Notes under the pieces: generated by a model
Seen by the model: only the letters and a program-made list of their open reading frames with translations
Told to the model about the DNA's origin: nothing
Database searches by the model: none
Shown here: in pieces, positions 404-44,330 of the stretch
Position numbering within the stretch: position 1 is the first letter of the stretch
How the letters are laid out: every line of letters begins with the position of its first letter
Program-made: the position numbers and the translations under genes
Sequence record: PZ527900.1
Source of the DNA: a phage
Strand: one strand, 5' to 3'
DNA: 44,330 nt

Positions 404-2388
404 GCATTATTCAGAACGTTGGTTGTCCTGAGTGCATGAAAAACAACCACGATAAATCGCAGAACCACTTGATGATTTTCGAAGATGGTGCGGGTTACTG
501 CAATCGTTCACATTTCCATGACAATGGCAGACCATATTACCACAAGCCAGAAGGCGGCATTGAAATAACCGAATTACCTATTACTGGCAACATCAAATAT
601 ACACCTTCTCAATTCAAAGAGGTGGAGAAGGAAGGGAAGATAAGCGACCCTAAACTACGCGCCATCGCACTTGGCGGTATGCGTATGAAAGACCGCTGGG
701 AGGTTATGAATGAGCAAGAAAGGGCAGACCAAGAAGCAGAATGGAAACTTGATGTTGAATGGTTCCGCACGCTTAAGCGTAAGAACCTTGTTTCCAGACA
801 CATTCGCGGCGACATTTGCGCATTGTATGATGTACGTGTCGGACACGATGAAGAGGGTAGAGTCTCACGGCATTACTACCCACGCTTCGAGAAGGGTGAG
901 CTAGTAGGTGCCAAGTGCCGTACTTTACCTAAAGATTTTAAGTTTGGACACCTAGGTAAACTCTTTGGTATGCAAGACCTTTTCGGGATGAATACTTTGT
1001 CTCACGTGTTAGACAAGGGAAGACGAAAGGATTGCTTGCTTATTGTAGGTGGTGAACTTGATGCACTAGCAGCCCAGCAGATGCTACTTGATTCTGCCAA
1101 GGGCACTAAGTGGGAAGGGCAACCTTATCATGTATGGTCTGTTAACAAGGGGGAGTCTTGCCTTGAAGAAATAGTGCAGAACCGTGAACACATTGCCCAA
1201 TTCAAAAAGATTATTTGGGGTTTTGATGGAGATGAGGTAGGGCAGAAGCAGAATCAGCAAGCGGCTCGCCTGTTTCCCGGCAAATCCTATATTCTTGAGT
1301 ACCCTTCTGGTTGCAAAGATGCTAACAAGGCATTGATGGCTGGCAAGGCTAAAGAGTTTGTGGATGCTTGGTTTAATGCAAAATCATCTGATGAAGTCTT
1401 TGGTAGCCAGATTAAATCTATCGCATCTCAAAGGGATAAGTTGAAGGCTGCACGACCAGAGCAAGGGCTGTCATGGCCTTGGCCTAAGCTGAATAAGGTA
1501 ACACTGGGTATTCGTAAGAACCAGCTTATTATTGTAGGTGCAGGCTCTGGTGTAGGTAAGACCGAGTTCCTTCGTGAAGTAGTTAAGCACCTCATCGAAG
1601 AACATGGTGAATCTGTAGGTATCATTTCTACGGAAGACCCGATGGTCAAGGTATCCCGTGCTTTTATCGGTAAGTGGATTGATAAGCGCATTGAACTACC
1701 GCCAACCAACGACCCGAAAGAGGATGGATACCGCGAGGTGTTCGACTATACCGAGGAAGAAGCTAACGCTGCCATTGACTATGTAGCTGATACAGGGAAG
1801 CTGTTTGTGGCTGACCTAGAAGGTGATTATTCAATGGAGAAGGTAGAGCAGACTTGCCTTGAGTTTGAAGCTATGGGTATTTCTAATATCATCATTGATA
1901 ACTTAACGGGGATTAAACTAGATGAGCGTGCTTTTGGTGGGAAGGTTGGTGCACTTGATGAATGCGTCAAGCGGATTGGTACTATCAAAGACCGACACCC
2001 AGTTACTATATTCCTTGTATCACACCTTACACGTCCTGCGGGGAACCGCACCCAGCACGAAGAAGGTGGCGAGGTTATCCTTTCTGACTTCCGAGGCTCA
2101 GGCGCTATCGGATTCTGGGCATCTTACGCCTTGGGGATTGAGCGTAACACAAGAGCTGAAACGCTTGACGAAAGGACTACCACGTACATCTCGTGTGTCA
2201 AAGATCGCGACCAAGGTATCTTCACCGGAACCAAGATTATGCTTAAGGGTGACATTCAAACCGGTCGTTTGAGAGAACCACAGGCTAGAACAAGGTCATT
2301 TGATACAGGTGAAGCAAGGCAACAAGAAGTGCCTGATTTACCGGACACTATAGAAGAGACAACCTTTGATGATGAACAGGAGTTTTGA
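388..2388 (+). CDS. DNA primase/helicase (T7 gp4-like)
   Basis: N-terminal Cys-rich zinc ribbon (CPEC...YCNRSH), Walker A GAGSGVGKTEF, helicase motifs SHLTRPAGNRTQHEEGG and DFRGSGAIGF, acidic C-terminus ending DDEQEF. In-frame ATG at 400 is an alternative start. Confidence 0.9.
   Translation: MGKSMSIIQNVGCPECMKNNHDKSQNHLMIFEDGAGYCNRSHFHDNGRPYYHKPEGGIEITELPITGNIKYTPSQFKEVEKEGKISDPKLRAIALGGMRMKDRWEVMNEQERADQEAEWKLDVEWFRTLKRKNLVSRHIRGDICALYDVRVGHDEEGRVSRHYYPRFEKGELVGAKCRTLPKDFKFGHLGKLFGMQDLFGMNTLSHVLDKGRRKDCLLIVGGELDALAAQQMLLDSAKGTKWEGQPYHVWSVNKGESCLEEIVQNREHIAQFKKIIWGFDGDEVGQKQNQQAARLFPGKSYILEYPSGCKDANKALMAGKAKEFVDAWFNAKSSDEVFGSQIKSIASQRDKLKAARPEQGLSWPWPKLNKVTLGIRKNQLIIVGAGSGVGKTEFLREVVKHLIEEHGESVGIISTEDPMVKVSRAFIGKWIDKRIELPPTNDPKEDGYREVFDYTEEEANAAIDYVADTGKLFVADLEGDYSMEKVEQTCLEFEAMGISNIIIDNLTGIKLDERAFGGKVGALDECVKRIGTIKDRHPVTIFLVSHLTRPAGNRTQHEEGGEVILSDFRGSGAIGFWASYALGIERNTRAETLDERTTTYISCVKDRDQGIFTGTKIMLKGDIQTGRLREPQARTRSFDTGEARQQEVPDLPDTIEETTFDDEQEF
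2334..2360 (+). promoter_or_regulatory. phage RNAP promoter P12, intragenic
   Basis: GATTTACCGGACACTATAGAAGAG inside the 3' end of the primase-helicase gene; the codons encode PDLPDTIEET. Confidence 0.6.
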
Positions 2389-2566: not shown

Positions 2567-2582
2567 GTCTCACATGCGAGAC
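2567..2582. repeat. 16-bp palindrome variant GTCTCACATGCGAGAC (copy 1 of 6, one mismatch)
   Basis: Extended stem GGGCTTGTCTCACATGCGAGACAGGCTC followed by TTATT; lies between the 53-aa ORF and gene 2622. Confidence 0.7.
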
Positions 2583-8527: not shown

Positions 8528-8543
8528 GTCTCACGTGTGAGAC
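8528..8543. repeat. 16-bp palindrome GTCTCACGTGTGAGAC (copy 2 of 6)
   Basis: Perfect inverted repeat starting 2 nt after the stop at 8526 and 15 nt upstream of P3. Confidence 0.8.
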
Positions 8544-21024: not shown

Positions 21025-21752
21025 TGGCTATAGGCTCAGCTGTTATGGCTGGTATGTCTTCTATTGGTAGTATGTTTGCAGGTAGCGGTGCAGCAGCCAC
21101 TGCTGGTGGTGCTGCCGCAACAGCAGGTGGTGGAGGTATGCTAGGTTCACTTGGCGGATTCTTAAGCGGCTCCACTGGTGGCTTCTCTAATGCTGGCCTT
21201 CTTGGTGCTGGTCTTCAAGGGTTAGGCTTAATTGGAGATTTCTTTGGTGGAAGTGATGAAGCCAAGGCTATGAAGAAGGCACAAAAGGAGCAATGGCGGC
21301 AGCAACTTATTGCTACACAAGAGGCATACAAGACAGTAGCAGATGCAGAGCGCTCTGCTGCTAAACAGTATCATGCAGATGCAATAAGCAATCAGGCTTC
21401 ACTGCTTCAGCAGCGAGCACAGGTTGCATTACTTGCTGGCGCTACTGGTACTGGTGGTAACTCTGTATCTTCTATGCTGAATGACTTAGCAGCAGAAGGC
21501 GGGAGAAACCAGAGTACAATTATTGATAACTATGAGAATCAGAAAATTAATTTCACCAATCAGCTTAAGTCTATTCAACGTGGTGGACAGATGCAGATGC
21601 GTGAGTTTAAGAAGCCTTCTGCCGTAAGTACCTTGGTTCAAGGTATTCCAAGTCTGGCCTCTGCCTATGTAACTGGTAGTAAGTCTGGCATGGCTTTAGG
21701 TAAAGCTCTAACTGATTCTCGTACATATTCATCTGGAACAAGGGGTATTTAA
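21024..21752 (+). CDS. internal virion protein (Gly-rich N-terminus)
   Basis: Position after tail tube B; Gly/Ala-rich N-terminus typical of ejected core proteins. Confidence 0.65.
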   Translation: MAIGSAVMAGMSSIGSMFAGSGAAATAGGAAATAGGGGMLGSLGGFLSGSTGGFSNAGLLGAGLQGLGLIGDFFGGSDEAKAMKKAQKEQWRQQLIATQEAYKTVADAERSAAKQYHADAISNQASLLQQRAQVALLAGATGTGGNSVSSMLNDLAAEGGRNQSTIIDNYENQKINFTNQLKSIQRGGQMQMREFKKPSAVSTLVQGIPSLASAYVTGSKSGMALGKALTDSRTYSSGTRGI

Positions 21753-24700
21753 TGGCAATTGAGCGGCAAGCAGTACAAGGTCTGCCACAAGTGCAGGCCA
21801 CTTCTCCTAATGTCATGACCTTTGCACCTCAGCGAGTTGGAGGTGTGGAGGCTGGCGTGGCTTCTACCTCCGGTAGTCGATTTATCGAAGATCTTATTCG
21901 AGCAGCGAGTAGTGTAGCTGATGTTACTACTGGTATCCTTAATCAGAAGATTGAGGAAGATAAGGTTGTTCAAATGGAACGGGCATATAATGGATTGATG
22001 CCTTCTGAGGATGCAACTCGTGGTGGCGCTCGTGCTAACATGCTTGTCAAAGCTCAACTGCTAGCTAATGATGAAGCAGCACGAATGAAAGACATGGCTA
22101 CTCGTTTCCAAGGAACGGATGACGAGTGGACACAACTCATGGTAGACTCTCGTAATGATATGCAGAACAAGCTGTTCCAGCAATACCCTGAGTTGCAAGG
22201 TGACAAAGATACAATGCGTATGGTCACTAACGTATTCCAAGAGCAGCAGCCTCAGATTTGGGCTACACGAACCCAGCATAAACTTGAACGGGAACAAGCT
22301 GATCGTGAAGATACCTTTGATGGAAGAGTGGCATCCACTTGGGATTCTAACCTTGACCCAGAAGCATCCGGTTATGCACTACAAGAGCGTATTCGTGAAG
22401 GTCTAACTCAAGGGTTATTGCCAGAGCAGATGCACAAGAAGTTAGTAGATAGGGCTATTTCTCTTGCACAAAGCGGTGATATCAGCATGGCTAAAGCCTT
22501 GAAGTATGTTAAGGATGACAAGGGTGTTTCTGTGTATGCGAAGAATCCGCAGCTTATCACAGCTATCACTAATGGTAATGCAGCTTGGGCTAGAAATAAT
22601 GTAGCTGATGTAACTCGTATGTCTTTCGAAGTTAAAGAGTCCTACCTTGCAGGTGATTTAACTGATGAAGAATTACTGGAGCGAGCACAACATATTAATA
22701 GTCTGACAGGTAACTCTGTGTTCTCTAACTCAGAACTTGAAGGGTTAATGCGCCAACGAGCGAAGCAGAATGCAGAGCTAGGTGCAATGCAAGATATGCG
22801 CCGTGAACTTTACTCGGACCGTATGATTGGTCTTCAAGGTAAATCGGATAAAGAAAAGAAAGCATATGTTGATCTTATCAAGCAAGACAGTCAACTCTAT
22901 GCAGACCAGCAGATTAAACAGCGGGGTCTTGACCCTTACAGCCAAGAAGCTGAAGCTATTCGTGGTGCTATAGAAGTTCAACGCCTCCAGTTTATGAACT
23001 CCAAAGGCTTAGTGGATGACACTTTTGAGTCTCGTATCAAAGCTATGGAATCCATGCTATCACCTGAGCACTTTGCTAAAGGTGAACCACAAGAGTTAAT
23101 GACTATTCGTCAATTGTGGGAGCAGTTACCAGAAGAGAGCCGAGGTGTCTTTGGTGACACAGTTAATGGCTATATGGATAACTACAACACTGCATTGCAG
23201 ATGGGTGAGACACCTTTGCAGGCTGCAAGGTTTGCCCGTGAAGCACAGCAGAAGTTCTCCCGTACTGAGAAAGAAACTAAGAAGTTCAACGCAGCTATTG
23301 GAGACGCCTTGGATACCGTGTCCGGTGCTGGGTGGTTTGATGGTAAGAAAGAGGTGTCTGACTTAGGTAAAGCTATTGCAGAAGAAGAATTACGAGCTAA
23401 GGCCAACATGTTGTGGTCCAGTGGTATGCGTAACATGGATTCCCTCAAGAAGGCTTTAATTACTTGGGGGAATAAACGCTACACTCAATCAGAGGATGCA
23501 AAGATCTCCGGTGGGTATTTTATCAAAGGTGATTATACCTCTGCATCTGATATGCTTATGTCCGTTGGGAAAGGGGTAAACCCTACTGATGTACCACTGG
23601 CTCTTGGTCGGTATGTAGAAGAACAGATGCCAGAGTTGAAGAAGGAACTTCAAGAGTGGGAGACTAAGAAGGACGTGTACATTGATTATAATGAACAGAA
23701 AGGCACTTTCGTAATTCGTGCTGGTGCCGCAGGTCGGCCTCTTTCTGGGGTAATCCCTATAACCTCCTTGGACACCACTTCCTTGTTGGATTCTGCTTAC
23801 AAGAAGAAAGTAGAAGAACGAGATAAAGGTGAATATGTACATCCATATCGTACAGATATTGGCACACAAGAGCCTATGCCTGCTAAACCAACTGCCAAAG
23901 ATATTGGTAAGTTTGGACTAGCTAACTTCCTCATGTCTTCTGCTTTCGCCTCTGGTGAGAGTCTCCCTTCTAACTTCGAAATTAACTATCGAGGAAATAT
24001 GCAACAATTCTATGATAAATTGGCTATGGATGAGAATAAAGACAAAGTTGGCTTTAATAGTGCAACTGGTACTTTTACTCCATACAAAGATGCTCACGGG
24101 GAATCTATCGGCTACGGTCATTTCTTGACGGAGGAAGAGAAGCGGAACGGGTACATTAAGATAGGAGATGAACTAGTCCCATATCGAGGGTCTATGTCTC
24201 AGCTTACAGAGAGCAAAGCTCGTGCTCTTATGGAGCAAGATGCTAAGAAGCATGTGCCCCCTACTCGTGACTGGAAGATTCCGTTTGACCAGATGCACCC
24301 TGCACAGCAACGTGGCTTGATGGATTTAACCTACAATTTAGGTAAGGGTGGAATCCAGAACTCACCGCGTGCTCTTGCTGCATTCAAAGCTGGTAAACTT
24401 ACGGAAGGTTTTATCGAAATGCTGGGCACTGCATCAAGTGAAGGTAAGCGTATTCCGGGCCTACTGAAGCGACGAGCCGAGGCTTACAACATGGCATCTG
24501 CTGGTGGTGTACCAAAGATTACCGAAGTAGAGACTCGTGAGGATGGTTCTATGTGGGTTAAGTTTGGTGGACCCATGCCAGCAGGCTCTGTCTCTGCGTG
24601 GACTCATAAACGTATTGGTGCGGATGGTTGGTATCAGGTTTATGAGGCTGCACCTACTAAGCTGGCTAAAGGTGCCAAAGTAGGTAAAGTTAAGTTGTAG
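21752..24700 (+). CDS. internal virion protein with lysozyme-like segment
   Basis: 982 aa; C-terminal PYKDAHGESIGYGHFLT resembles the T4 lysozyme YKDTEGYYTIGIGHLLT region. Confidence 0.8.
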   Translation: MAIERQAVQGLPQVQATSPNVMTFAPQRVGGVEAGVASTSGSRFIEDLIRAASSVADVTTGILNQKIEEDKVVQMERAYNGLMPSEDATRGGARANMLVKAQLLANDEAARMKDMATRFQGTDDEWTQLMVDSRNDMQNKLFQQYPELQGDKDTMRMVTNVFQEQQPQIWATRTQHKLEREQADREDTFDGRVASTWDSNLDPEASGYALQERIREGLTQGLLPEQMHKKLVDRAISLAQSGDISMAKALKYVKDDKGVSVYAKNPQLITAITNGNAAWARNNVADVTRMSFEVKESYLAGDLTDEELLERAQHINSLTGNSVFSNSELEGLMRQRAKQNAELGAMQDMRRELYSDRMIGLQGKSDKEKKAYVDLIKQDSQLYADQQIKQRGLDPYSQEAEAIRGAIEVQRLQFMNSKGLVDDTFESRIKAMESMLSPEHFAKGEPQELMTIRQLWEQLPEESRGVFGDTVNGYMDNYNTALQMGETPLQAARFAREAQQKFSRTEKETKKFNAAIGDALDTVSGAGWFDGKKEVSDLGKAIAEEELRAKANMLWSSGMRNMDSLKKALITWGNKRYTQSEDAKISGGYFIKGDYTSASDMLMSVGKGVNPTDVPLALGRYVEEQMPELKKELQEWETKKDVYIDYNEQKGTFVIRAGAAGRPLSGVIPITSLDTTSLLDSAYKKKVEERDKGEYVHPYRTDIGTQEPMPAKPTAKDIGKFGLANFLMSSAFASGESLPSNFEINYRGNMQQFYDKLAMDENKDKVGFNSATGTFTPYKDAHGESIGYGHFLTEEEKRNGYIKIGDELVPYRGSMSQLTESKARALMEQDAKKHVPPTRDWKIPFDQMHPAQQRGLMDLTYNLGKGGIQNSPRALAAFKAGKLTEGFIEMLGTASSEGKRIPGLLKRRAEAYNMASAGGVPKITEVETREDGSMWVKFGGPMPAGSVSAWTHKRIGADGWYQVYEAAPTKLAKGAKVGKVKL

Positions 24701-24717: not shown

Positions 24718-24733
24718 GTCTCACATGTGAGAC
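24718..24733. repeat. 16-bp palindrome GTCTCACATGTGAGAC (copy 3 of 6)
   Basis: Perfect palindrome; extended stem GGCTTGTCTCACATGTGAGACAGGTC followed by TTTAT. Confidence 0.8.
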
Positions 24734-24764: not shown

Positions 24765-27700
24765 ATGGAACAAGATATTAAAAATAATTGGGCTGGTTAT
24801 GTCCAGTCCACTCCTGAGCCGTTTTCTATTGAGGCGGCTCCGGTATCGGCTCCTACGATACGCCAGCGTAATGAGTTACAAGAGCAAGTTCTTGAAGCTA
24901 AAGCTGACGCGGACATCCTAGGGGCTGTGGGTGCTGCCTTCCAGAATGAGTGGCTGGCATTTGGAGGCAAGCGGTGGTATGACCGTGCCACCGCAGATTT
25001 CACACCTCAACCTGATTTTGAAATCCAGCCAGATAGACGTGAAGCACTTCGCTTCAAATATGGTACGGATATGATGCAGAAAATCACAGATGGTGTTCGC
25101 TCTGAGGATGAATTAAACTTCCGTATTCAGAATGCAGATGAAGACCTTGAGCGCAATAAACGTATTGCTCAGGCAGGCTGGGCGGGGTCTGTGGCAACGA
25201 TTGGCGCCGCTGTGCTTGACCCTGTTGGCTGGGTTGCCTCTATCCCAACTGGTGGTGCAGCTAAGGTGGGGCTTGTAGGACGTGCTGTTCGTGGTGCCAT
25301 TGCTGCTGGTGTGAGCAATGCCGCTATTGAATCCGTATTGGTACAAGGTGACATGACCCGTGATTTAGATGACATTATGGTAGCACTAGGCTCCGGTATG
25401 GCGATGGGTGGTGTTATTGGCGCTGTGGCACGTGGTAGGGCTACTAAACTCAGCGAGCAAGGCGACGATACGGCTGCTAGTGTTGTGCGAAGTGCAGACG
25501 CTGGGGACCGATATGTACGTGCCGTTGCCGATGACAGCATCGGTGCAATGCGTGTTAAGGGAGAAGAGGTGCTCACTGAGGGTGCATTTGATGTATCCAG
25601 TAAAGGTGAAGACTTGTTAAAAACATTGCAGCGAGAGGGTAATGCGATTGACATGACACCGCGCCGATGGGCCGGAACTATGTCTGCCCTTGGGACTGTC
25701 GTGCATTCCTCGCAGGATGCTAGTGTACGTGGCCTAGGTGCTCGCCTATTTGAATCACCACAAGGCTTAGGTATGCAGAAAGCATCTGCTAGTCTAATGC
25801 AGAATACCAACTTGAACCGTTTAAAGTCTGCTGATATGAACCGTTTTAATGATGGATTTGACTTATGGCTCAAAGAGAACAACATCAATCCGGTTGCAGG
25901 GCACACTAACTCTCACTATGTGCAGCAATACAATGAGCAGGTATGGGAGGCTGTTCGTATTGGCATGGATGAGTCCACACCTGAATCCATCCGCATGGCA
26001 GCTGAGGGGCAGCAGACTATGTACAGAGAAGCACTGGCTTTACGTCAACGCTCTGGTGAAGCTGGCTTTGAAAAGGTCAAGGCTGACAACAAGTATATGC
26101 CTGATATATTTGATAGTATGAAAGCCAGACGTCAGTTCGATATGCACGATAAAGAAGATATAATCGAACTCTTCTCTCGTGCCTATCAAAATGGTGCTCG
26201 TAAGATTCCAAAAGAAGCAGCAGATGAGATCGCACGAGCACAAGTGAATCGTGTTGCTGATGCTACCTTAACTGGAAGGCTTAGTTTTGAAAGGGCTATG
26301 TCCGGTCAGACTAAGGCGGAGTATGAAGCTATCATGCGTAAGGCTGGCTTTAGCGATGAAGAGATTGAAAAGATGGTAGAAGCTCTGGATAACAAAGAAA
26401 CCAGAGATAATATCTCTAATCGCGCTAAGATGAGTCTAGGGTTAGATGTTACTCAAGAATATAATGGTATTCGTATGCGTGACTTCATGAATACCAACGT
26501 AGAGGAGTTAACTGATAACTACATGAAGGAGGCAGCAGGTGGTGCTGCATTGGCTCGCCAAGGGTTCTCTACCTACCAGGCTGCACTTAATGCAATTGAC
26601 CTTGTTGAGCGAAATGCGCGTAACGCAGCTAAGAGCAGTAAAGAGAGTTTGGCGTTAGACGAAGAGATTCGTCAGATGCGAGAAGGTCTTCGCTTGATTA
26701 TGGGTAAATCTATTGATGCAGACCCACAAGCCCTGTCTACTAAGATGATGCGGCGTGGGCGCGACATTACAGGTGTGCTTCGCTTAGGGCAGATGGGGTT
26801 TGCACAGTTAGGTGAACTTGCTAACTTCATGGGTGAGTTTGGTATTGCTGCAACCACAATGGCTTTAGGTAAGCAATTTCGCTTTACCTCTAAGGCATTA
26901 CGCAATGGCGATGGCTTCTTCCGAGACAAGAACTTAGCAGAAGTAGAGCGAATGGTTGGCTATATTGGTGAGGACAACTGGCTGACAACGAAGGGAGCAC
27001 GTCCAGATGAGTTCGGTGACGTGACAACCATTCGTGGTGCTATGGCTCACTTTGACCAATCGATGAACTCAATTCGTCGTGCTCAGACCAACCTGTCCCT
27101 CTTCCGCATGGCTCAGGGTTCTCTGGAACGAATGACCAATAGGCAAATAGCCTTGTCTTTCATCGACCACCTTGAAGGTAAGAAGATTATCCCTCAGAAG
27201 AAACTGGAGGAGCTTGGTCTTACTCAGGAGTTCATGAGCCGTCTACAGAAACACTATGATGCTAACTCTAAAGGCTCAGGGTTGCTTGGCTTTGATACAA
27301 TGCCTTATGCCATGGGTGAGACTCTAGCTAATGCTATTCGTCGTAAGTCAGGTCTAATCATTCAACGTAACTTCATTGGTGATGAAGGTATCTGGATGAA
27401 CAAAGCCCTAGGCAAGACCTTTGCACAGCTTAAGTCCTTCTCTTTGGTGTCTGGTGAGAAGCAATTCGGTCGAGGCATTCGCCACGATAAGATTGGCCTA
27501 GCTAAGAAGACAGCCTTTGGCTTTGCTTTAGGTTCAATCGTGTATGCAGCGAAAGCCTACGTGAACTCTATTGGGAGAGAAGACCAAGATGAATATCTGG
27601 AAGAGAAGTTATCGCCTAAAGGGTTAGCCTTTGGTGCGATGGGTGTAATGAGTACAACTGCTGTATTTAGTCTAGGCGGAGATTTCTTAGGTGGCCTAGG

Positions 27701-27950
27701 TGTTCTGCCTTCCGAACTCATTCAATCACGTTATGAAGCAGGCTTCCAAAGTAAAGGTCTGATTGACCAAATACCTCTGGTTGGCGTTGGTGCAGATGCA
27801 GTAAATCTGGCTAACTCAATCAAGAAGTATGCAGAAGGTGACACAGAGGGTGTAGATGTAGCTAGGCGAGCACTTCGTCTTGTGCCACTGACTAATGTAA
27901 TAGGTGTCCAAAACGCATTGCGTTATGGCTTAGATGAACTGGAGGATTGA
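24765..27950 (+). CDS. internal virion protein (large ejection/core protein, gp16-like position)
   Basis: 1061 aa; GGAGG RBS; last of three large genes between tail tube B and the adaptor. Confidence 0.8.
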   Translation: MEQDIKNNWAGYVQSTPEPFSIEAAPVSAPTIRQRNELQEQVLEAKADADILGAVGAAFQNEWLAFGGKRWYDRATADFTPQPDFEIQPDRREALRFKYGTDMMQKITDGVRSEDELNFRIQNADEDLERNKRIAQAGWAGSVATIGAAVLDPVGWVASIPTGGAAKVGLVGRAVRGAIAAGVSNAAIESVLVQGDMTRDLDDIMVALGSGMAMGGVIGAVARGRATKLSEQGDDTAASVVRSADAGDRYVRAVADDSIGAMRVKGEEVLTEGAFDVSSKGEDLLKTLQREGNAIDMTPRRWAGTMSALGTVVHSSQDASVRGLGARLFESPQGLGMQKASASLMQNTNLNRLKSADMNRFNDGFDLWLKENNINPVAGHTNSHYVQQYNEQVWEAVRIGMDESTPESIRMAAEGQQTMYREALALRQRSGEAGFEKVKADNKYMPDIFDSMKARRQFDMHDKEDIIELFSRAYQNGARKIPKEAADEIARAQVNRVADATLTGRLSFERAMSGQTKAEYEAIMRKAGFSDEEIEKMVEALDNKETRDNISNRAKMSLGLDVTQEYNGIRMRDFMNTNVEELTDNYMKEAAGGAALARQGFSTYQAALNAIDLVERNARNAAKSSKESLALDEEIRQMREGLRLIMGKSIDADPQALSTKMMRRGRDITGVLRLGQMGFAQLGELANFMGEFGIAATTMALGKQFRFTSKALRNGDGFFRDKNLAEVERMVGYIGEDNWLTTKGARPDEFGDVTTIRGAMAHFDQSMNSIRRAQTNLSLFRMAQGSLERMTNRQIALSFIDHLEGKKIIPQKKLEELGLTQEFMSRLQKHYDANSKGSGLLGFDTMPYAMGETLANAIRRKSGLIIQRNFIGDEGIWMNKALGKTFAQLKSFSLVSGEKQFGRGIRHDKIGLAKKTAFGFALGSIVYAAKAYVNSIGREDQDEYLEEKLSPKGLAFGAMGVMSTTAVFSLGGDFLGGLGVLPSELIQSRYEAGFQSKGLIDQIPLVGVGADAVNLANSIKKYAEGDTEGVDVARRALRLVPLTNVIGVQNALRYGLDELED

Positions 27951-37496: not shown

Positions 37497-37872
37497 ATGG
37501 AAACGTGGGTAACTATTCCTGGCTACCCACGGTATCAAGTGCCTACTCATGGACGTGTCAAATCGCTCATTGGTAATCACAAGATACTGAAGCCGGGCAA
37601 GTCAAAGAGTGGGTATTTAAATGTAGTTCTTAGTAACGAGGGAGGCAAGAGGACATTCCGTGTGCATCGCTTGGTTGCACTATGTCACTTGCCTAACCCT
37701 CATAACCTTCCCCTTAGTGAACCACAAGGATGAAGACAAGGCACATAATCATGTAGACAACTTAGAGTGGTGTACTGAAGAGTACAATCTAAAGTATTCA
37801 CGTGACTATGACAGGTCTTCTCTTAGTGTAACCCAAGGGAAGAAGAAGGTATGGCTTCCAGTTGACCTGTAA
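37497..37872 (+). CDS. second HNH homing endonuclease; frame broken by +1 C in a C4 run near 37710 (ORF pieces 37497-37733 and 37660-37872)
   Basis: AAGGAG RBS; N-part WVTIPGYPRYQV...HRLVALCHLPNP, C-part VNHKDEDKAHNHVDNLEWCTEEYN in the +1 frame. Confidence 0.6.
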
Positions 37873-38524: not shown

Positions 38525-38540
38525 GTCTAACATGTGAGAC
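38525..38540. repeat. 16-bp palindrome variant GTCTAACATGTGAGAC (copy 4 of 6, one mismatch)
   Basis: Lies about 35 nt upstream of the candidate host promoter. Confidence 0.5.
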
Positions 38541-39318: not shown

Positions 39319-39654
39319 ATGGAACGTAACGCAAACGCTTATTACAATCTGCTGGCTGCAACTGTTGAAGCCTTCAACGAGCGTATTCAGTCCGATGGTA
39401 TCCGTGAAGGTGATGATTATTCTGATGCATTACATGAGGTTGTTGATAGCAACGTGCCGCACTACTATCATGAAATTTTCACGGTGATGGCAGCCGACGG
39501 GATTGATATTAGTTTTGAGGATGAAGGTTTGATTCCTGACACGAAGGATGTAACCAAGATTCTACAAGCTCGCATCTATGAGGCGCTTTATAATGATGTA
39601 CCGAATGACAGCAATGTAGTTTGGTATGAAGACGAGGAAGAAGAGGAAGAATAA
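39319..39654 (+). CDS. ocr: Ocr-like DNA-mimic anti-restriction protein (T7 gp0.3 homologue)
   Basis: [47 protein letters not shown] closely parallels T7 Ocr as recalled ([47 protein letters not shown]); strongly acidic, ends EDEEEEEE. Confidence 0.85.
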   Translation: [111 protein letters not shown]

Positions 39655-39655
39655 G

Positions 39656-39769
39656 ATGGAAAAGCAATATAACTTCATCTTTTCGGATGGTGTAACCCTG
39701 AAGTGTTCCTTGCGATTTGCCCAGATTCGTGAGGAAGTGCTAGGAACTACATACAAGTTATTTAGCTGA
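39656..39769 (+). CDS. possible small early protein (37 aa)
   Basis: GAGGAAG RBS 6 nt upstream; its 3' end overlaps promoter-like element P9. Confidence 0.3.
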   Translation: MEKQYNFIFSDGVTLKCSLRFAQIREEVLGTTYKLFS

Positions 39770-39782
39770 CACTATAAGAGAG
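39758..39782 (+). promoter_or_regulatory. variant phage promoter P9 (A at +1)
   Basis: ATTTAGCTGACACTATAAGAG: SP6-like -17 to -1 with C at -11 and AGAG instead of GAAG start; followed by a 7-bp hairpin. Confidence 0.45.
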
Positions 39783-39849
39783 GATTTAACAGGGCGTTAC
39801 TTGTTAGCGCCCGATTAAGTTTATCTCAATAAACCAAATAGGTGAATAT

Positions 39850-40734
39850 ATGACTACTGAAAACACCCTCGTTTCTGTTCGTGAAGCTGCAACCGCTGAA
39901 ATCAAGCAACACTTAGACAATATCGGCACTTCTTACATCAAAGTTGGCGCTTGTCTGAATGAATTACGTGGTGACTTCGAAGGTCAAAAAGACTTTTTAG
40001 CTTATGTAGAATCAGAGTTCGGCATTAAGAAAGCACAATGTTACAAGCTGATGAGCGTAGCGCGTGTCTTTGAAGGTGACGAACGCTTCAAAGGTGTGGC
40101 TATGCGTGTAATGCTGGTGCTTGTTCCTTTCGCTGATGAAAGTATCATTATGGAGAAGGCCGCAGAACTTGCCGCAGATGGCAAGCTGGACACTGCCGCC
40201 GTAAACGCCTTGATTGAGCCTAAGAAAGAGCCAAAGACTGAGACGATACAATCTAAGCCTGAGCCAGTAAAACCGCAGGAGAACGCGACTGAGGACGCAG
40301 AATCACAGGAAACGCAAGCGCCGCAGGCAGTTCCGCCAGCTATCGAGTCAGATGCCGATGAAGCCTCACCATGGGAAGAGGAAAGCAAGACGGAAGCACC
40401 GAAGGCCGCGCCACGGGATAACACGGCTAACACTGAAAACGCCGCTATCGCGGGATTATTGGCACAAATTAAAGCACTGACGGAGCAGTTGCAGGCAGCT
40501 AATGACCGCATCGCCTCTTTAAGTAGCGCACGCGAAAGCAAGAAGGCAGCAGCGCCTATGCTTCCACAATTCAAATCATCTTGCTTCTACGCTCGCTTGG
40601 GTTTGAGTGCTGAGGAAGCAACGAAGAAGACCGCAGTAAACAAGGCACGCCGTGAACTGGTCAAGCTGGGATACGGTGAAGGCCATGAGGCATGGGCCTT
40701 AATCTCTGAGGCAGTAGAAGAATTGACTAAGTAA
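39850..40734 (+). CDS. early protein of unknown function (294 aa): folded N-domain, acidic/Pro-rich disordered linker, helical C-domain
   Basis: Linker EPKKEPKTETIQSKPEPVKPQENATEDAESQETQAPQAVPPAIESDADE; C-terminal FYARLGLSAEEATKKTAVNKARRELVKLGY resembles the start of a J-domain but lacks HPD. No kinase motifs. Confidence 0.65.
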   Translation: MTTENTLVSVREAATAEIKQHLDNIGTSYIKVGACLNELRGDFEGQKDFLAYVESEFGIKKAQCYKLMSVARVFEGDERFKGVAMRVMLVLVPFADESIIMEKAAELAADGKLDTAAVNALIEPKKEPKTETIQSKPEPVKPQENATEDAESQETQAPQAVPPAIESDADEASPWEEESKTEAPKAAPRDNTANTENAAIAGLLAQIKALTEQLQAANDRIASLSSARESKKAAAPMLPQFKSSCFYARLGLSAEEATKKTAVNKARRELVKLGYGEGHEAWALISEAVEELTK

Positions 40735-40797: not shown

Positions 40798-41139
40798 ATG
40801 TGTGGCAAACGCGGCAGACCTGTTAATCAGGAGAATGAAAAGCTAAGACAAGCCGCCAAAGAGCGAGGTGATAAGGTATATGACTCTATACAACCATGTA
40901 AACACGGGCATATAGCCCGCTTGGTATCAGACAATAGGTGCCACGCCTGTAAACTTCAAAAGGCTAAAAGGTACAGAGATGCTATGAATCTGGAGCAGAA
41001 AGAAAAGCAAATGGCACACGTCAGGGCTTACATGAAGAAGCGGTATGATAGTGATCCTGCTTTTCGTAAGTATCAAATTGTAAACAGCGAAATCAACCGC
41101 CACCTACGCGCACTGAATAAACTACTAGATATGGAGTAA
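40798..41139 (+). CDS. early hypothetical basic protein with Cys/His cluster (113 aa)
   Basis: GGAG RBS; [18 protein letters not shown] may bind zinc; directly upstream of RNAP. Confidence 0.55.
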
Positions 41140-41144
41140 ACAAG

Positions 41145-43772
41145 ATGCAAGATTTACATGCTATCCAGCTTCAATTAGAGGAAGAGATGTTTAACGGCGG
41201 TATTCGTCGCTTTGAAGCAGACCAACAGCGACAAATTGCATCAGGTAATGAGTCTGATACGGCTTGGAATCGCCGCCTATTGTCTGAATTAATCGCGCCG
41301 ATGGCTGAAGGTATTCAGGCATACAAGGAAGAGTATGAAGGTAAAAGAGGTCGTGCACCGCGTGCCCTTGCTTTCATTAACTGCGTAGAAAACGAAGTGG
41401 CAGCATATATCACGATGAAAATCGTAATGGATATGCTTAACACTGATGTTACCTTGCAGGCCATTGCCATGAATGTAGCGGACCGCATCGAAGACCAAGT
41501 GCGCTTCAGTAAGCTAGAAGGTCACGCCGCAAAATACTTTGAGAAAGTGAAGAAGTCGCTTAAGGCAAGTAAGACTAAGGCATATCGCCATGCGCACAAT
41601 GTAGCAGTAGTGGCTGAAAAGTCTGTAGCTGACCGTGACGCGGATTTCTCCCGCTGGGAGGCATGGCCCAAAGACACCTTGTTGCAAATAGGTACTACCT
41701 TGCTGGAAATCTTGGAGAATAGCGTATTCTTCAACGGGCAGCCTGTTTTCCTTCGTACCTTGCGCACTAACGGCGGCAAACATGGTATTTATTACTTACA
41801 AACTAGCGAACACGTAGGTGAATGGATAACGGCCTTCAAAGAGCACGTAGCGCAACTGAGTCCTGCCTATGCACCTTGCGTTATCCCTCCGCGTCCTTGG
41901 GTGTCTCCTTTTAATGGCGGTTTTCACACCGAGAAGGTAGCAAGCCGTATCCGTCTAGTTAAAGGCAACCGTGAGCACGTCCGTAAGCTGACCAAAAAGC
42001 AAATGCCAGCGGTATACAAGGCTGTTAACGCCTTACAGGCCACTAAATGGCAAGTCAATAAGGAAGTATTGCAGGTTGTTGAAGATGTTATTCGTCTCGA
42101 CCTTGGTTATGGTGTGCCTTCATTTAAGCCACTCATCGACCGCGAGAACAAGCCAGCTAATCCCGTGCCGTTAGAGTTCCAGCATCTAAGAGGCCGTGAA
42201 CTTAAAGAGATGCTAACGCCGGAACAATGGCAAGCCTTCATTAACTGGAAAGGCGAGTGCACCAAGCTGTATACCGCTGAGACTAAGCGCGGCAGCAAAT
42301 CGGCGGCAACCGTCCGCATGGTCGGGCAGGCCCGTAAATACAGCCAGTTTGACGCTATATACTTCGTGTATGCACTGGACAGCCGCAGCCGCGTCTACGC
42401 GCAATCTAGCACGCTCTCCCCGCAATCAAACGATTTAGGCAAGGCATTGCTCCGCTTTACCGAAGGGCAACCGCTAGATAGCGCTGAGGCGCTTAAATGG
42501 TTTTTGGTGAACGGGGCTAATAGCTGGGGTTGGGATAAGAAAACTTTTGACGTGCGCACCGCTAACGTGCTGGAGGGTGAGTTCCAAGATATGTGCCGCG
42601 ACATTGCAGCCGACCCGCTGACCTTCACTCAATGGGTGAATGCCGATTCGCCTTATGGCTTCCTTGCATGGTGCTTTGAATATGCGCGTTATCTGGATGC
42701 ACTGGATGAAGGTAAGCAAGACCAATTCATGACACACCTACCCGTCCATCAAGATGGTAGTTGCTCTGGTATCCAGCACTATAGCGCGATGTTACGCGAT
42801 GAAGTAGGTGCGAAAGCGGTAAACCTTAAGCCGTCCGACGAGCCGCAAGACATTTACGGTGCGGTTGCGCAGGTTGTTATACAGAAGAATTACGCCTACA
42901 TGAATGCAGACGATGCAGTAACTTTCACATCTGGCAGCGTCACCCTTACAGGTGCGGAATTGCGTAGCATGGCTAGCGCATGGGATATGATTGGAATCAC
43001 TCGCGGCTTAACCAAAAAGCCGGTTATGACCTTGCCATATGGTTCCACCCGCTTAACCTGCCGTGAGTCGGTTATTGATTACATCGTTGATTTGGAAGAA
43101 AAAGAGGCACAAAGGGCTATTGCAGAAGGGCGGACGGCGAATCCGGTGCACCCTTTTGATAATGACCGTAAAGACTATCTGACACCGGGCGCAGCTTATA
43201 ACTATATGACAGCCTTAATTTGGCCTTCAATCTCTGAAGTTGTTAAAGCCCCTATAGTGGCGATGAAAATGATTCGCCAGCTTGCACGATTTGCAGCTAA
43301 AAGAAATGAAGGGTTAGAATACCCCTTACCTACTGGTTTCATCTTGCAACAAAAGATCATGGCAACTGATATGCTACGCGTTTCTACTTGCTTGATGGGT
43401 GAAATCAAGATGAGTCTACAGATTGAAACGGATGTAGTGGATGAAACGGCAATGATGGGCGCTGCGGCCCCTAACTTTGTTCACGGGCATGATGCTAGTC
43501 ACCTTATCCTGACTGTATGTGACCTCGTGGATAAAGGTATTACATCCATTGCAGTTATTCATGACTCTTTTGGCACTCATGCAGGCCGCACCGCAGACCT
43601 GCGGGATAGCTTAAGGGCAGAAATGGTAAAAATGTATCAAGGTCGTAATGCCCTGCAAAGCCTGCTAGATGTACATGAAGAGCGTTGGCTAGTAGATACC
43701 GGCATCCAAGTGCCGGAGCAAGGGGAGTTTAACCTTGAAGAGATCTTAGTTTCTGACTATTGCTTCGCATAA
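41145..43772 (+). CDS. single-subunit DNA-directed RNA polymerase (SP6/T7 family)
   Basis: 875 aa; [42 protein letters not shown] and C-terminal ...DYCFA; N-terminus [32 protein letters not shown] matches SP6 RNAP as recalled. Confidence 0.95.
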
Positions 43773-43780
43773 TATTGATA

Positions 43781-43810
43781 GGCCATTCCTTCGGGAGTGG
43801 CCTTTTCTTT
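43781..43810 (+). terminator. rho-independent-type terminator after the RNAP gene (candidate early terminator)
   Basis: GGCCATTCC-TTCG-GGAGTGGCC (9-bp stem, UUCG loop) followed by TTTTCTTT. Confidence 0.6.
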
Positions 43811-43844: not shown

Positions 43845-43860
43845 GTCTCACATGTGAGAC
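43845..43860. repeat. 16-bp palindrome GTCTCACATGTGAGAC (copy 5 of 6)
   Basis: Directly abuts promoter P10. Confidence 0.8.
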
Positions 43861-43862
43861 TT

Positions 43863-43887
43863 ATATTTACCGGACACTATAGGAGAG
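43863..43887 (+). promoter_or_regulatory. phage RNAP promoter P10
   Basis: ATTTACCGGACACTATAGGAGAG. Confidence 0.7.
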
Positions 43888-44021
43888 AACCGTCGGAGAC
43901 GGGAGAGAGAAGGGAAGGTAAAGGATATAAAGGAAGTAATAAGTATTAAAGGTTATATAGGTTTACCTAGGAATACCTATTACCTTCTTCCTTCCTCTTA
44001 TTACTACTTAGAGGAAGGGCA
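43888..44021. other. AT-rich, purine-then-pyrimidine skewed segment between tandem promoters; candidate primary replication origin
   Basis: GA-rich left half (GGGAGAGAGAAGGGAAGGTAAAGG...), CT-rich right half (ACCTTCTTCCTTCCTCTTATTAC); contains AGGTTATATAGGT. Confidence 0.35.
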
Positions 44022-44037
44022 GACCTAGGTTGTCTCA
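44022..44037. repeat. 16-bp palindrome GTCTCACATGTGAGAC (copy 6 of 6)
   Basis: Directly abuts promoter P11. Confidence 0.8.
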
Positions 44038-44050
44038 CATGTGAGACTTG

Positions 44051-44232: not shown

Positions 44233-44330
44233 ATGGAATTGTGGCGCAACATAGAAGGTCATGAAGGTTATGAGGTATCTAACCTAGGTCGAGTGCGTAG
44301 TGCTAAGGGCGTGCTCAAGGAGTTCATTCA
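44233..44330 (+). CDS. N-terminus of the HNH homing endonuclease that continues at window position 1
   Basis: ATG 3 nt after the previous stop; MELWRNIEGHEGYEVSNLGRVRS... is in frame with ORF 18-266 through the 55-nt overlap. Confidence 0.6.
   Translation, partial: MELWRNIEGHEGYEVSNLGRVRSAKGVLKEFI
44276..44330. other. 55-nt duplicate of window positions 1-55 (circular-assembly overlap)
   Basis: Exact identity of the last 55 nt with the first 55 nt, inside a coding sequence. Confidence 0.9.

Follow-up and report, generated by a model that had tools for sequence, protein, structure and literature searches.

KorB, the ParB-family global repressor of the IncP plasmid RK2/RP4 (PDB 1r71, 8qa8), acts as a dimer on about a dozen copies of a palindrome in its own replicon (12 operators are bound on RK2), some directly upstream of promoters and others distant from promoters and intragenic. 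Among J-domain proteins (DnaJ/Hsp40, PF00226), residues Y25, K26 and F47 of DnaJ are functionally important, and a functional His-Pro-Asp (HPD) tripeptide is present both in polyomavirus large T antigen, which joins a J-domain to an origin-binding domain, and in Rki, a J-domain protein of phage RB43. Tim16/Pam16, which pairs with Tim14, is J-like without HPD. In phage T7, gp0.7 is a protein kinase that also takes part in host shut-off, and the primary origin lies at two promoters after gene 1. To our knowledge, the programme of SP6/K1E-type phages is thought to run on RNA polymerase and promoter strengths alone. Here we describe an early protein of these phages, gp6, which we regard, with a probability of roughly 0.6, as a KorB-like site-specific binder of the phage's own genome that carries an HPD-less J-like effector module.

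The gene lies in a phage DNA of 44,330 nt (record PZ527900.1; hereafter the window) as an ORF running from ATG to stop at 39850..40734 on the + strand, and it encodes the 294-aa protein that a preliminary description of this DNA had placed there, including the sequence quoted from it. It corresponds to "gp6" of K1E/K1-5/SP6-type phages (phrog_4571, function entry "unknown"), which is labelled hypothetical everywhere and has been ever since the SP6 and K1-5 genomes came out; a 2014 genome paper still gave its function as unidentified. Conservation over the full length in 214 phage records, together with 132 clusters at 50% identity among 1.84 billion proteins, confirmed that the ORF is a real gene, beyond chance. 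It belongs to a small set of early genes that are conserved throughout Molineuxvirinae and Colwellvirinae and in many marine relatives, and its position beside the RNA polymerase (RNAP) gene is conserved in relatives. Next to it, in the host-takeover region, lies the anti-restriction gene ocr. The elements immediately preceding the start codon are the following.

39763..39781, + strand: phage (SP6/K1E-type) promoter core, exact match, directly upstream of gp6
39792..39812, + strand: G+C-rich hairpin with an 8-bp stem, between the promoter and the gp6 start codon

This promoter is absent from the same place in SP6 and ACG-C91. Downstream, the RNAP gene occupies 41145..43772; the gene is thus upstream of RNAP as described, but not just upstream, with a 113-aa ORF (40798..41139) in between. 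The likeness to T7 gp0.7, also an early gene near the RNAP gene, ends with that position. The absence of kinase motifs, already noticed in the preliminary description, held in searches of Pfam, NCBIfam, PADLOC and PHROGs, the window protein had no other significant match in Pfam, NCBIfam or PADLOC, and the folds of the two proteins are unrelated. A gp0.7-type kinase was therefore rejected for lack of the motifs. As a direct query against PDB sequences the window protein also gave nothing useful, and family-wide scans and profiles alone were informative.

An AlphaFold2 model of gp6 was confident in both the N- and C-terminal domains (pLDDT >90 for a helical domain at aa 10-122 and >93 for a compact domain at aa 239-293), and the protein is divided as follows.

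39850..40215, + strand: N-domain, aa 1-122, predicted six-helix DUF3102 / KorB-ParB-type helix-turn-helix (HTH) DNA-binding domain
39985..40071, + strand: helix-turn-helix, aa 46-74, from model secondary structure, co-variation and blind predictions
40216..40428, + strand: acidic Pro/Ala-rich disordered linker, aa 123-193, from pLDDT of 48-61 and composition
40429..40551, + strand: long helix, aa 194-234, from the AlphaFold2 model and a heptad repeat
40552..40731, + strand: J-like domain, aa 235-294, from profile and fold

The N-domain of about 120 aa proposed earlier agrees with the modelled helical domain, but its KorB/ParB-type HTH (DUF3102) had been overlooked, as had the long helix. The acidic, Pro-rich linker was correctly recognized and is of low model confidence, but it measures 71 aa rather than about 80 (E 20%, P 15%, A 15%; net charge −10); across the family its length and acidity are kept and its sequence is not. 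The helix at aa 194-234 has a clean heptad register (a = I,I,L,I and d = L,L,A,L) and weak Pfam matches to coiled-coil families, and on this model it is probably a dimerising coiled coil.

Several lines of evidence bear on the N-domain. DUF3102 (PF11300), an uncharacterised family of phages and plasmids, was matched by 50 of 101 gp6 relatives (E≤0.1; best E 1.5e-7), with the matches falling over the HTH region at profile positions 14-75 of 129. Ten relatives scored one by one reached 15-22.5 bits, compared with a gathering score of 24.4, and the window protein itself had no match to this profile at E≤1. The structural neighbours of gp6 in BFVD were phage proteins named DUF3102, and the predicted fold of the N-domain is that of a ParB/KorB-type HTH DNA-binding domain. 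A Foldseek search of the PDB, proposed in the preliminary description, was non-significant for gp6 (best E 1.4), but its top two matches were ParB-family DNA complexes. A search of PDB sequences with an N-domain profile found no ParB or KorB and returned spurious matches only (ETV6 fusions and designed proteins). In the model, then, the gp6 N-domain is a DUF3102 / KorB-ParB-type HTH DNA-binding domain, comprising a helix at aa 46-57, a turn with G58 and a recognition helix at aa 61-74 on which Q63, Y65 and K66 (K66 codon, 40045-40047) are the putative specificity residues. DUF3102 has no known function and received passing mentions only in the literature searched in full text, and its model leaves out the coiled coil and J-like C-terminus of gp6. 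Differences from KorB are also clear: gp6 has no detectable sequence similarity to it, lacks the N-terminal ParB/Srx-like CTP-binding (CTPase) domain (the HTH domain of the window protein begins near aa 10, and Pfam finds no ParBc), has an extra J-like domain, and is predicted to dimerise through a coiled coil, whereas KorB does so through its C-terminal domain.

The second likeness to KorB, found in silico, is that phages with gp6 carry a repeated short palindrome, with some copies close to promoters and some within genes, although the operator sequence is a different one and the promoters are of the single-subunit phage RNAP type. The window contains seven copies of the 16-bp palindrome GTCTCAC-RY-GTGAGAC, compared with 0.21 expected by chance, and three of the seven sit 4-15 nt upstream of phage promoters. 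The copies, to which no strand is assigned, are as follows.

999..1014, no strand: palindrome GTCTCACGTGTTAGAC, within the 666-aa ORF 388-2388
2567..2582, no strand: palindrome GTCTCACATGCGAGAC, apex of a longer hairpin with 7 extra pairs including G.U, then a U-rich tail
8528..8543, no strand: palindrome GTCTCACGTGTGAGAC, 15 nt upstream of a phage promoter (core start 8566)
24718..24733, no strand: palindrome GTCTCACATGTGAGAC, apex of a longer hairpin with 7 extra pairs including G.U, then CUUUAU
38525..38540, no strand: palindrome GTCTAACATGTGAGAC, about 34 nt upstream of the first sigma-70-like early promoter (38574)
43845..43860, no strand: palindrome GTCTCACATGTGAGAC, 4 nt upstream of a phage promoter (core start 43872)
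44032..44047, no strand: palindrome GTCTCACATGTGAGAC, 5 nt upstream of a phage promoter (core start 44060)

ORF 388-2388 is read as the primase/helicase gene from synteny with annotated relatives, and at the codons of its palindrome SP6 and three other loci (L023, L024 and L029) also have a class-specific palindrome. The copy at 38525..38540, at the left end and in front of the early promoters of host type, is syntenic with SP6 site 493, and that at 24718..24733 falls between ORFs 21752-24700 and 24765-27950. The copy at 43845..43860 lies just past the RNAP gene and its terminator-like hairpin and, with the copy at 44032 and their promoters, flanks a 150-bp AT/purine-rich stretch; this two-palindrome/promoter arrangement after the RNAP gene is conserved in SP6, PM93, Era103 and others.

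Class-specific palindrome families, each a variant of its own, were present in nearly all related genomes and loci whose flanking sequence sufficed, and in several genera the palindromes lie 0-15 nt upstream of phage promoters. Two loci (L041 and L049) had weak or few sites only. The spacing is either 2 or 3 central bases among clades with an identical half-site. The top half-site count was 11-13 in phages with gp6, compared with 3-4 (shuffles, 2-5) in three T7-like Studiervirinae genomes that lack gp6, in which no palindromes were found. A full-text literature search returned nothing relevant on the palindrome or on gp6 function, and SP6/K1-5 papers that are not openly available may note palindromes.

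A predictive link between residues of the recognition helix and the half-site was observed. Residues 63/65/66 are QYK in Vectrevirus, Era103, Vibrio, Pseudomonas and Aeromonas phages with the half-site GTCTCAC, at N-domain identities of 35-54%; Q(Y/F)(N/H) goes with GTCYAAC, YYR with GTCTACA, WYR with GTMTAGT and, in one locus only, QSK with GTTTCAC. The code is not strictly one-to-one, as WFK and HYR proteins both go with GTCTCCT. The observed pairings, of lysine with C:G, asparagine or histidine with A:T and arginine with G/C, agree with usual amino-acid/base preferences, and we count this as support for the specificity link. Calculated without phylogenetic correction, K66 had the lowest variation of information relative to palindrome class of the 294 gp6 columns, and its value of 0.72, compared with a best of 0.94 among 2,389 columns of three other proteins of these genomes (RNAP, primase and DNAP), made it the most class-predictive of ~2,700 alignment columns in four proteins.

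The link also held for sequences not used to derive it. When the palindrome was predicted blind from residues 63/65/66 on unseen metagenomic contigs, all seven predictions were correct, with no match on these contigs to any other class and at most 0.01 matches expected. Two earlier predictions were likewise borne out, by a perfect site in one locus (L038) and by G-type sites with one mismatch in L049. A provisional "class H" site, GTAACAC, with two copies in L041, is weak, and another HYR protein goes with GTCTCCT. Because the recognition residues of the HTH N-domain predict a genome-repeated palindrome, gp6 looks primarily like a site-specific DNA-binding protein. Phage phiA318 has a wholly different promoter (PMC4099482), yet its half-site and its QYK are the same as in the window. 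Palindrome class does not go with RNAP or promoter specificity, and the phage RNAP was rejected as reader of the palindrome, since the same half-site occurs with an unrelated promoter consensus and no RNAP column tracks class as K66 does.

At the other end of the protein, the preliminary description had noted a J-domain-like C-terminus lacking HPD, and profile and fold both bear this out. The domain consists of a conserved P-x-L-P-Q-F lead-in, particular to the gp6 family, followed by J-domain helices I-III; the J-like segment FYARLGLSAEEATKKTAVNKARRELVKLGYGEGHE spans aa 246-280. Structure prediction gave a J fold (helix I with antiparallel helices II and III) in place of the unrelated fold that the preliminary description had named as contrary evidence. 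Pfam DnaJ was matched by 16 of the 101 family members (E≤0.1), always C-terminally and at profile positions 2-57 of 63; the top score, in protein P0142 (26.0 bits, E 1e-5), is below the gathering score of 27.8, and the window protein had no match to Pfam DnaJ. When a C-domain profile was compared with the PDB, 35 of 39 matches were J-domains (best E 2.6e-4), and Tim16 was among the structural matches. The signatures LG-x-S, A(Y/F)R-x-L and EAF-x-L occur at the correct spacing, and in the alignment the family consensus has equivalents of DnaJ Y25, K26 and F47 in (Y/F)267, R268 and an aromatic residue at 282, with R in place of (Y/F) at 267 in the window protein. We conclude that aa 235-294 are distantly but genuinely related to J-domains.

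Its departures from the canonical J-domain are equally consistent. The place of HPD is taken by Y275-G276-E277 (40672-40680), helices II and III are joined by a shorter loop, and there is no helix IV, because in the AlphaFold2 model gp6 ends at aa 294 right after helix III; matches of relatives to Pfam DnaJ end between profile positions 52 and 57 of 63. HPD is missing from all 101 aligned members, the nearest being NPD in P0142, with TPE, NKD, TAA and KGN in other relatives, and the loop varies across the family (GYGEGHE, HYNPDTN, IYTAATN, LFKGN). Without HPD and helix IV, the J-like module would not be expected to stimulate the Hsp70 ATPase canonically. In lacking HPD it resembles Tim16 and differs from large T and Rki, from which gp6 is also set apart by its domain order, its DNA-binding fold and the lack of a helicase domain. 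From J-domain proteins it is set apart by the fusion to a DNA-binding domain.

On the reading of gp6 as a KorB-like binder, the protein would be made early in infection and bind specific sites of phage DNA. Q63, Y65 and K66 would read the 7-bp half-site GTCTCAC, and the heptad helix at aa 194-234 would pair two gp6 chains, so that the dimer could recognise the 16-bp palindrome. By analogy with KorB, bound dimers would most likely modulate transcription from adjacent promoters, or organise the region equivalent to the T7 primary origin, or do both. The acidic disordered linker would tether the DNA-bound part to the J-like module, which keeps the J fold and the (Y/F)R-x-L signature of helix II and probably serves to dock a partner, for instance DnaK, a J-protein or a polymerase. 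An extended version, which is speculative and in our judgement unlikely, would make gp6 a global regulator that tethers a component of the host Hsp70 system or a polymerase to palindromes at promoters and the probable origin. Such a protein would be a phage parallel to polyomavirus large T, which combines origin binding with a J-domain, and would have a re-programmable three-residue code.

One alternative is that the palindromes act at the RNA level only, as hairpins for termination, pausing or processing or as stabilisers of mRNA 3′ ends, and are unrelated to gp6, that the HTH binds host DNA, another target or nothing, and that the correlation reflects shared ancestry. Consistent with this idea, 25 of 111 palindromes have at least 4 extra flanking pairs including G.U, compared with 2% expected, and about half of these then have U-rich tails; the flanks of the window copy at 2567..2582 and of SP6 site 8547 differ by compensatory changes; many copies are intergenic, with a Shine-Dalgarno sequence directly downstream; and some positions were named rho-independent terminators in genome papers on relatives (PMC4837284). 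At least some copies thus have a role at the RNA level, and this could be the primary role. However, the other 86 of 111 copies have bare 7-bp arms around a 2-3 nt centre and would be poor hairpins alone, mismatched window copies yield C.U, A.C and A.G instead of wobble pairs, and structure alone does not call for an identical sequence genome-wide with another in the next genus. Nor would it account for class-specific copies at homologous codons within the RNAP and primase genes, a copy upstream of the first early promoter, the seven correct blind predictions from three helix residues, or a K66 column that outranks ~2,400 columns of three other conserved proteins. We consider it unlikely that the palindromes are RNA elements and nothing else.

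Two further possibilities concern what gp6 does. It could use the same DNA sites as a replication-origin or genome-organising factor, with the J-like domain remodelling or recruiting replication proteins as in large T, or with ParB-like condensation of DNA. The two palindrome-promoter modules after the RNAP gene, in the region corresponding to the T7 primary origin, fit such a role, as does the intragenic location of some copies, which is frequent for ParB-type sites; but gp6 begins with the HTH domain and has no CTPase domain, no ParA-like partner was seen among annotated relatives, T-antigen-type chaperone activation is not expected without HPD, and the sites are scattered over the entire genome, making an origin or organising function doubtful. 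The preliminary description had instead suggested a chaperone decoy or host-factor binder, in which the J-like domain would either tie up DnaK or form a pair with a host J-protein, in the manner of Tim16 and Tim14, and the N-domain would be accessory. Although the J fold and profile similarity, the retained consensus equivalents of the DnaJ residues, the structural match to Tim16 and the location beside ocr agree with this suggestion, the absence of HPD in all 101 members implies no canonical Hsp70 activation, the replacing loop is unconserved, and searches of anti-defence and defence libraries gave no match. Moreover, the best-conserved and most informative part of gp6 is an HTH with genome-wide cognate sites, which would be superfluous for a pure decoy, and we regard it as very unlikely that gp6 is mainly a chaperone decoy or host-factor binder.

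If gp6 is a KorB-like binder, operator-like sites with a site-specific binder at phage promoters would add a regulatory layer to a T7-type programme and explain the conspicuous clade-specific palindrome family of these genomes, and the J-like domain would be a new case of such a domain in use without HPD. It would also offer a testable specificity switch, K66N, from GTCTCAC to GTCTAAC. For the engineering of SP6-RNAP expression systems and of therapeutic phages of the K1E/K1-5/SP6 type, it would supply orthogonal DNA-binding modules together with their sites.

We also considered a natural domain swap in one relative (L009), in which the last 61 aa of gp6 are identical to those of the window. 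This was rejected in favor of ordinary divergence, because aa 196-294 as a whole are only 90% identical, and RNAP and other genes are ~85% identical.

The product of the ORF at 39850..40734 (+), called gp6 after its counterparts in K1E/K1-5/SP6-type phages, is very probably a sequence-specific reader of a palindrome found throughout the genome, as judged from sequence comparisons. The 294-aa ORF is exactly as a preliminary description had reported. That account's observation is confirmed, and its interpretation is supported in part: the J-like C-terminus stands, and an N-terminal helix-turn-helix had been missed. The window, 44,330 bp, is a circularly permuted Vectrevirus genome, K1E/K1-5-like and of the SP6 supergroup. 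The gp6 gene is ∼90% identical in DNA to those of K1E, K1-5, ACG-C91 and many others, where it is labeled 'gp6' or 'hypothetical protein' or, in a few records, bears a junk name such as 'andolysin'. PHROGs assigns it to phrog_4571, function unknown (1.7e-130), and a 2014 genome paper described gp6 as 'of unidentified function in SP6'.

Surroundings of the gp6 gene
39319..39654, ocr DNA-mimic anti-restriction gene (Pfam ocr 1.7e-30; phrog_2568), directly upstream of the gp6 transcription unit
39763-39781, exact phage promoter core, immediately before the gp6 gene
39850..40734 (+), gp6
40798-41139, 113-aa Cys/His-rich ORF, between the gp6 and RNAP genes
41145..43772, single-subunit RNAP, 875 aa, downstream of both
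43780-43803, terminator-like hairpin downstream of RNAP

The 113-aa ORF had only weak PHROG matches (phrog_1081, 1.7e-5) and no tblastn match among 11 related loci, and is thus taken as accessory and confined to this phage lineage. The promoter at 39763-39781 is absent from the equivalent place in SP6 and ACG-C91. Just upstream of gp6, related phage loci (L004 ∼2360-2400, L012, L005, L023) conserve a hairpin, TAGCC-stem-loop-stem-GTGAAA, with compensatory changes; at that place the window has the consensus phage promoter and a different hairpin (39792-39812). In the distant relatives L055, L056 and L060, the slot held by ocr is occupied by an S-adenosylmethionine lyase gene (PF23780; anti-restriction of the T3 type).

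Full-length homologues were found by tblastn in 214 records of phages infecting Escherichia, Klebsiella, Salmonella, Proteus, Erwinia, Pantoea, Vibrio, Pseudomonas, Aeromonas and Marinomonas, and the gene adjoins that for RNAP in all 10 records with annotation or flanks examined. HMMER, run exhaustively over 1.84 billion cluster representatives, returned only 132 clusters, nearly all with both N- and C-terminal parts. Many members (among proteins P0129-P0252, and the homologues of L035, L040, L042 and L047-L050) carry an additional 70-150-aa helical N-terminal extension that the window protein lacks.

The N-domain is modeled as six helices (aa 10-122, pLDDT >90), and half of the family matches DUF3102 (Pfam) over aa 40-75. 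It contains a helix-turn-helix (HTH) made of a helix at aa 46-57, a turn with G58 and a recognition helix at 61-74. Positions 16 and 17 of a canonical HTH usually contact bases; with G58 taken as position 9, these are Y65 and K66. A Foldseek search, as the preliminary description had proposed, gave no significant match; its top two hits were the VirB-DNA and P1 ParB-DNA complexes, and the BFVD structural neighbors are DUF3102 phage proteins. Pfam revealed no ParB-type CTPase domain in the window protein, and neither Pfam nor a search of the N-domain profile against PDB sequences detected sequence-level similarity to ParB or KorB. The linker, described earlier as acidic, Pro-rich and ∼80 aa long, is indeed acidic and Pro/Ala-rich (net charge −10) and spans 71 aa, with low model confidence. 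Across the family it ranges from 14 to 91 aa, and most members keep it acidic (net charge −20 to +3, median −6). The 41-residue helix that follows, with its clean heptad pattern, is likely a dimerizing coiled coil according to the model.

Although the window protein alone has no Pfam match at its C-terminus or elsewhere, the proposed J-domain resemblance was borne out at the family level. DnaJ (PF00226) was matched by 16 of 101 aligned members, always C-terminally and over profile positions 2-57 of 63, with a best score of 26.0 bits, below the gathering score of 27.8. When the C-terminal 61-residue profile was compared with all PDB sequences, J-domains made up 35 of 39 hits (best E 2.6e-4), and an AlphaFold2 model built from the family alignment gave the C-domain a pLDDT >93. 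Y275-G276-E277 occupies the position of the His-Pro-Asp (HPD), whose absence had been reported; no member of the 101-member alignment has HPD, the variants there being GYGEGHE, HYNPDTN, HYTPETN, IWNKDSN, IYTAATN and LFKGN. Helix IV is also missing, and ahead of helix I lies a P-x-L-P-Q-F segment particular to the family. We conclude that the C-terminus is a degenerate J-like domain, not classed as a functional J-domain because the defining HPD is absent; we infer that it has a partner.

A KorB-like dimer would be expected to read a palindrome. In the window, GTCTCACATGTGAGAC occurs 7 times (≤2 mismatches) versus 0.21 expected by chance.

Palindrome copies in the window, by start
999, within the primase/helicase gene
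2567 and 24718, each capping a longer hairpin that contains G.U pairs and is followed by a U-rich tail
8528, 15 nt upstream of a phage promoter (core start 8566)
38525, ∼34 nt upstream of the first sigma-70-like early promoter
43845, 4 nt upstream of a phage promoter (core start 43872)
44032, 5 nt upstream of a phage promoter (core start 44060)

Relatives carry their own variants at syntenic places, and these site classes (half-site families) are mutually exclusive between genomes.

Palindromes of relatives
SP6 and many others, GTCYAAC-RY-GTTRGAC
Proteus phages, GTCCAAC-NNN-GTTGGAC
Era103, GTCTCAC-RY-GTGAGAC
Vibrio, Pseudomonas and Aeromonas phages, GTCTCAC-NNN-GTGAGAC
Other relatives, half-sites GTTTCAC, GTCTACA, GTMTAGT, GTCTCYT, GTTCGAG

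No such palindrome family exists in three T7-like genomes of Studiervirinae that lack a gp6 homologue, and their top half-site count of 3-4 equals that of shuffled sequence, compared with 11-13 in gp6 phages.

The half-site is tracked by three recognition-helix residues (63, 65 and 66).

Residues 63/65/66 and half-site
Q63/Y65/K66 (QYK), GTCTCAC; six lineages with N-domains only 35-54% identical to that of the window
Q/(Y,F)/(N,H), GTCYAAC
Y/Y/R, GTCTACA
W/Y/R, GTMTAGT
Q/S/K, GTTTCAC; one locus only, L037
W/F/K, GTCTCYT
S/S/E, GTTCGAG; one locus only, L046

Chemically, the pairings make sense: Lys goes with C:G, Asn/His with A:T and Arg with G/C. Of the 294 alignment columns of gp6, K66 comes closest to a one-to-one match with site class, followed by Q63, in a test not corrected for phylogeny; the variation of information for K66 is 0.72, versus a best value of 0.94 among 2,389 RNAP, primase and DNA polymerase columns from the same genomes. 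In a blind test, the half-site was predicted from the three residues of distant metagenomic members before their contigs were fetched, correctly in all seven cases (P0157, P0143, P0192, P0219, P0142, P0162, P0161), with no other-class hit in these contigs and a chance expectation of ≤0.01. Earlier predictions also held for L038 (a perfect site) and L049 (1-mismatch G-type sites only). An eighth contig, without prior prediction, paired an HYR protein with GTCTCCT as well, so residues and half-sites do not correspond in strict one-to-one fashion.

A purely phylogenetic effect is made less likely by the way QYK stays with GTCTCAC across deep divergences, whereas K changes to N/H among close relatives. 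The possibility that the palindrome follows RNAP specificity was rejected, since phiA318 shares the half-site and QYK despite an unrelated promoter consensus (PMC4099482). That the palindromes are RNA-only elements keeps some weight: about a quarter (25 of 111) form part of longer hairpins of RNA type, many are located directly ahead of ribosome-binding sites, and some copies must function at the RNA level as well. Binding by gp6, for its part, could lead to activation, repression, origin function or genome organization.

By analogy, gp6 would work most like KorB, a dimeric HTH protein whose roughly ten palindromic operators, on its own replicon, lie partly near promoters and partly within genes; for gp6, dimer and binding are predicted. 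By sequence, gp6 is not a KorB/ParB family member, and it is without the CTPase domain. Its C-terminus resembles Tim16, in which a J-like fold is kept and HPD lost. A search of the accessible literature, a set without the first genome papers on SP6 and K1-5, yielded neither the combination of KorB-type HTH, acidic linker, coiled coil and HPD-less J-like domain nor its link to palindromes specific to clades of T7-supergroup phages.

Many relatives have a palindrome of their own class within the RNAP gene, at matching codons (…FDVR…; L006 5754, L036 4686, L037 12038, L023 5622, L024 11675), a copy lost from the window. If gp6 binds there, it might form an autoregulatory roadblock. Between the two post-RNAP palindrome-promoter modules, 43861-44031 comprises ∼150 bp that are purine-rich and then AT-rich with internal symmetry (gaagggaagg ... 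ccttcttccttcc), a candidate origin because it lies where T7 has its primary origin region. Just past the start of the first post-RNAP promoter, a small hairpin, CCGTCGGAGACGG (43890-43902), is kept from Vectrevirus to Aeromonas phage MJG (L004 6142, L005 6456, L024 13014, L045 5720, L023 6938, L029 12980); compensatory variants in two relatives, CCATCGAAGATGG and CCTTCGGAGAAGG, suggest a structured 5′ leader RNA. Elsewhere, the overlapping ORFs 37497-37733 and 37660-37872, in different frames (…HRLVALCHLPNP… / …VNHKDEDKAHNHVDNLEWCT…), jointly read like one NUMOD4/HNH homing endonuclease, and 37497-37872 has the look of an HNH gene that is frameshifted or uses a programmed frameshift. Another NUMOD4/HNH-like ORF begins at 44234-44330 (MELWRNIEGHEGYEVSNLGRVRSAKG…) and is cut by the window end, where the genome is circularly permuted.
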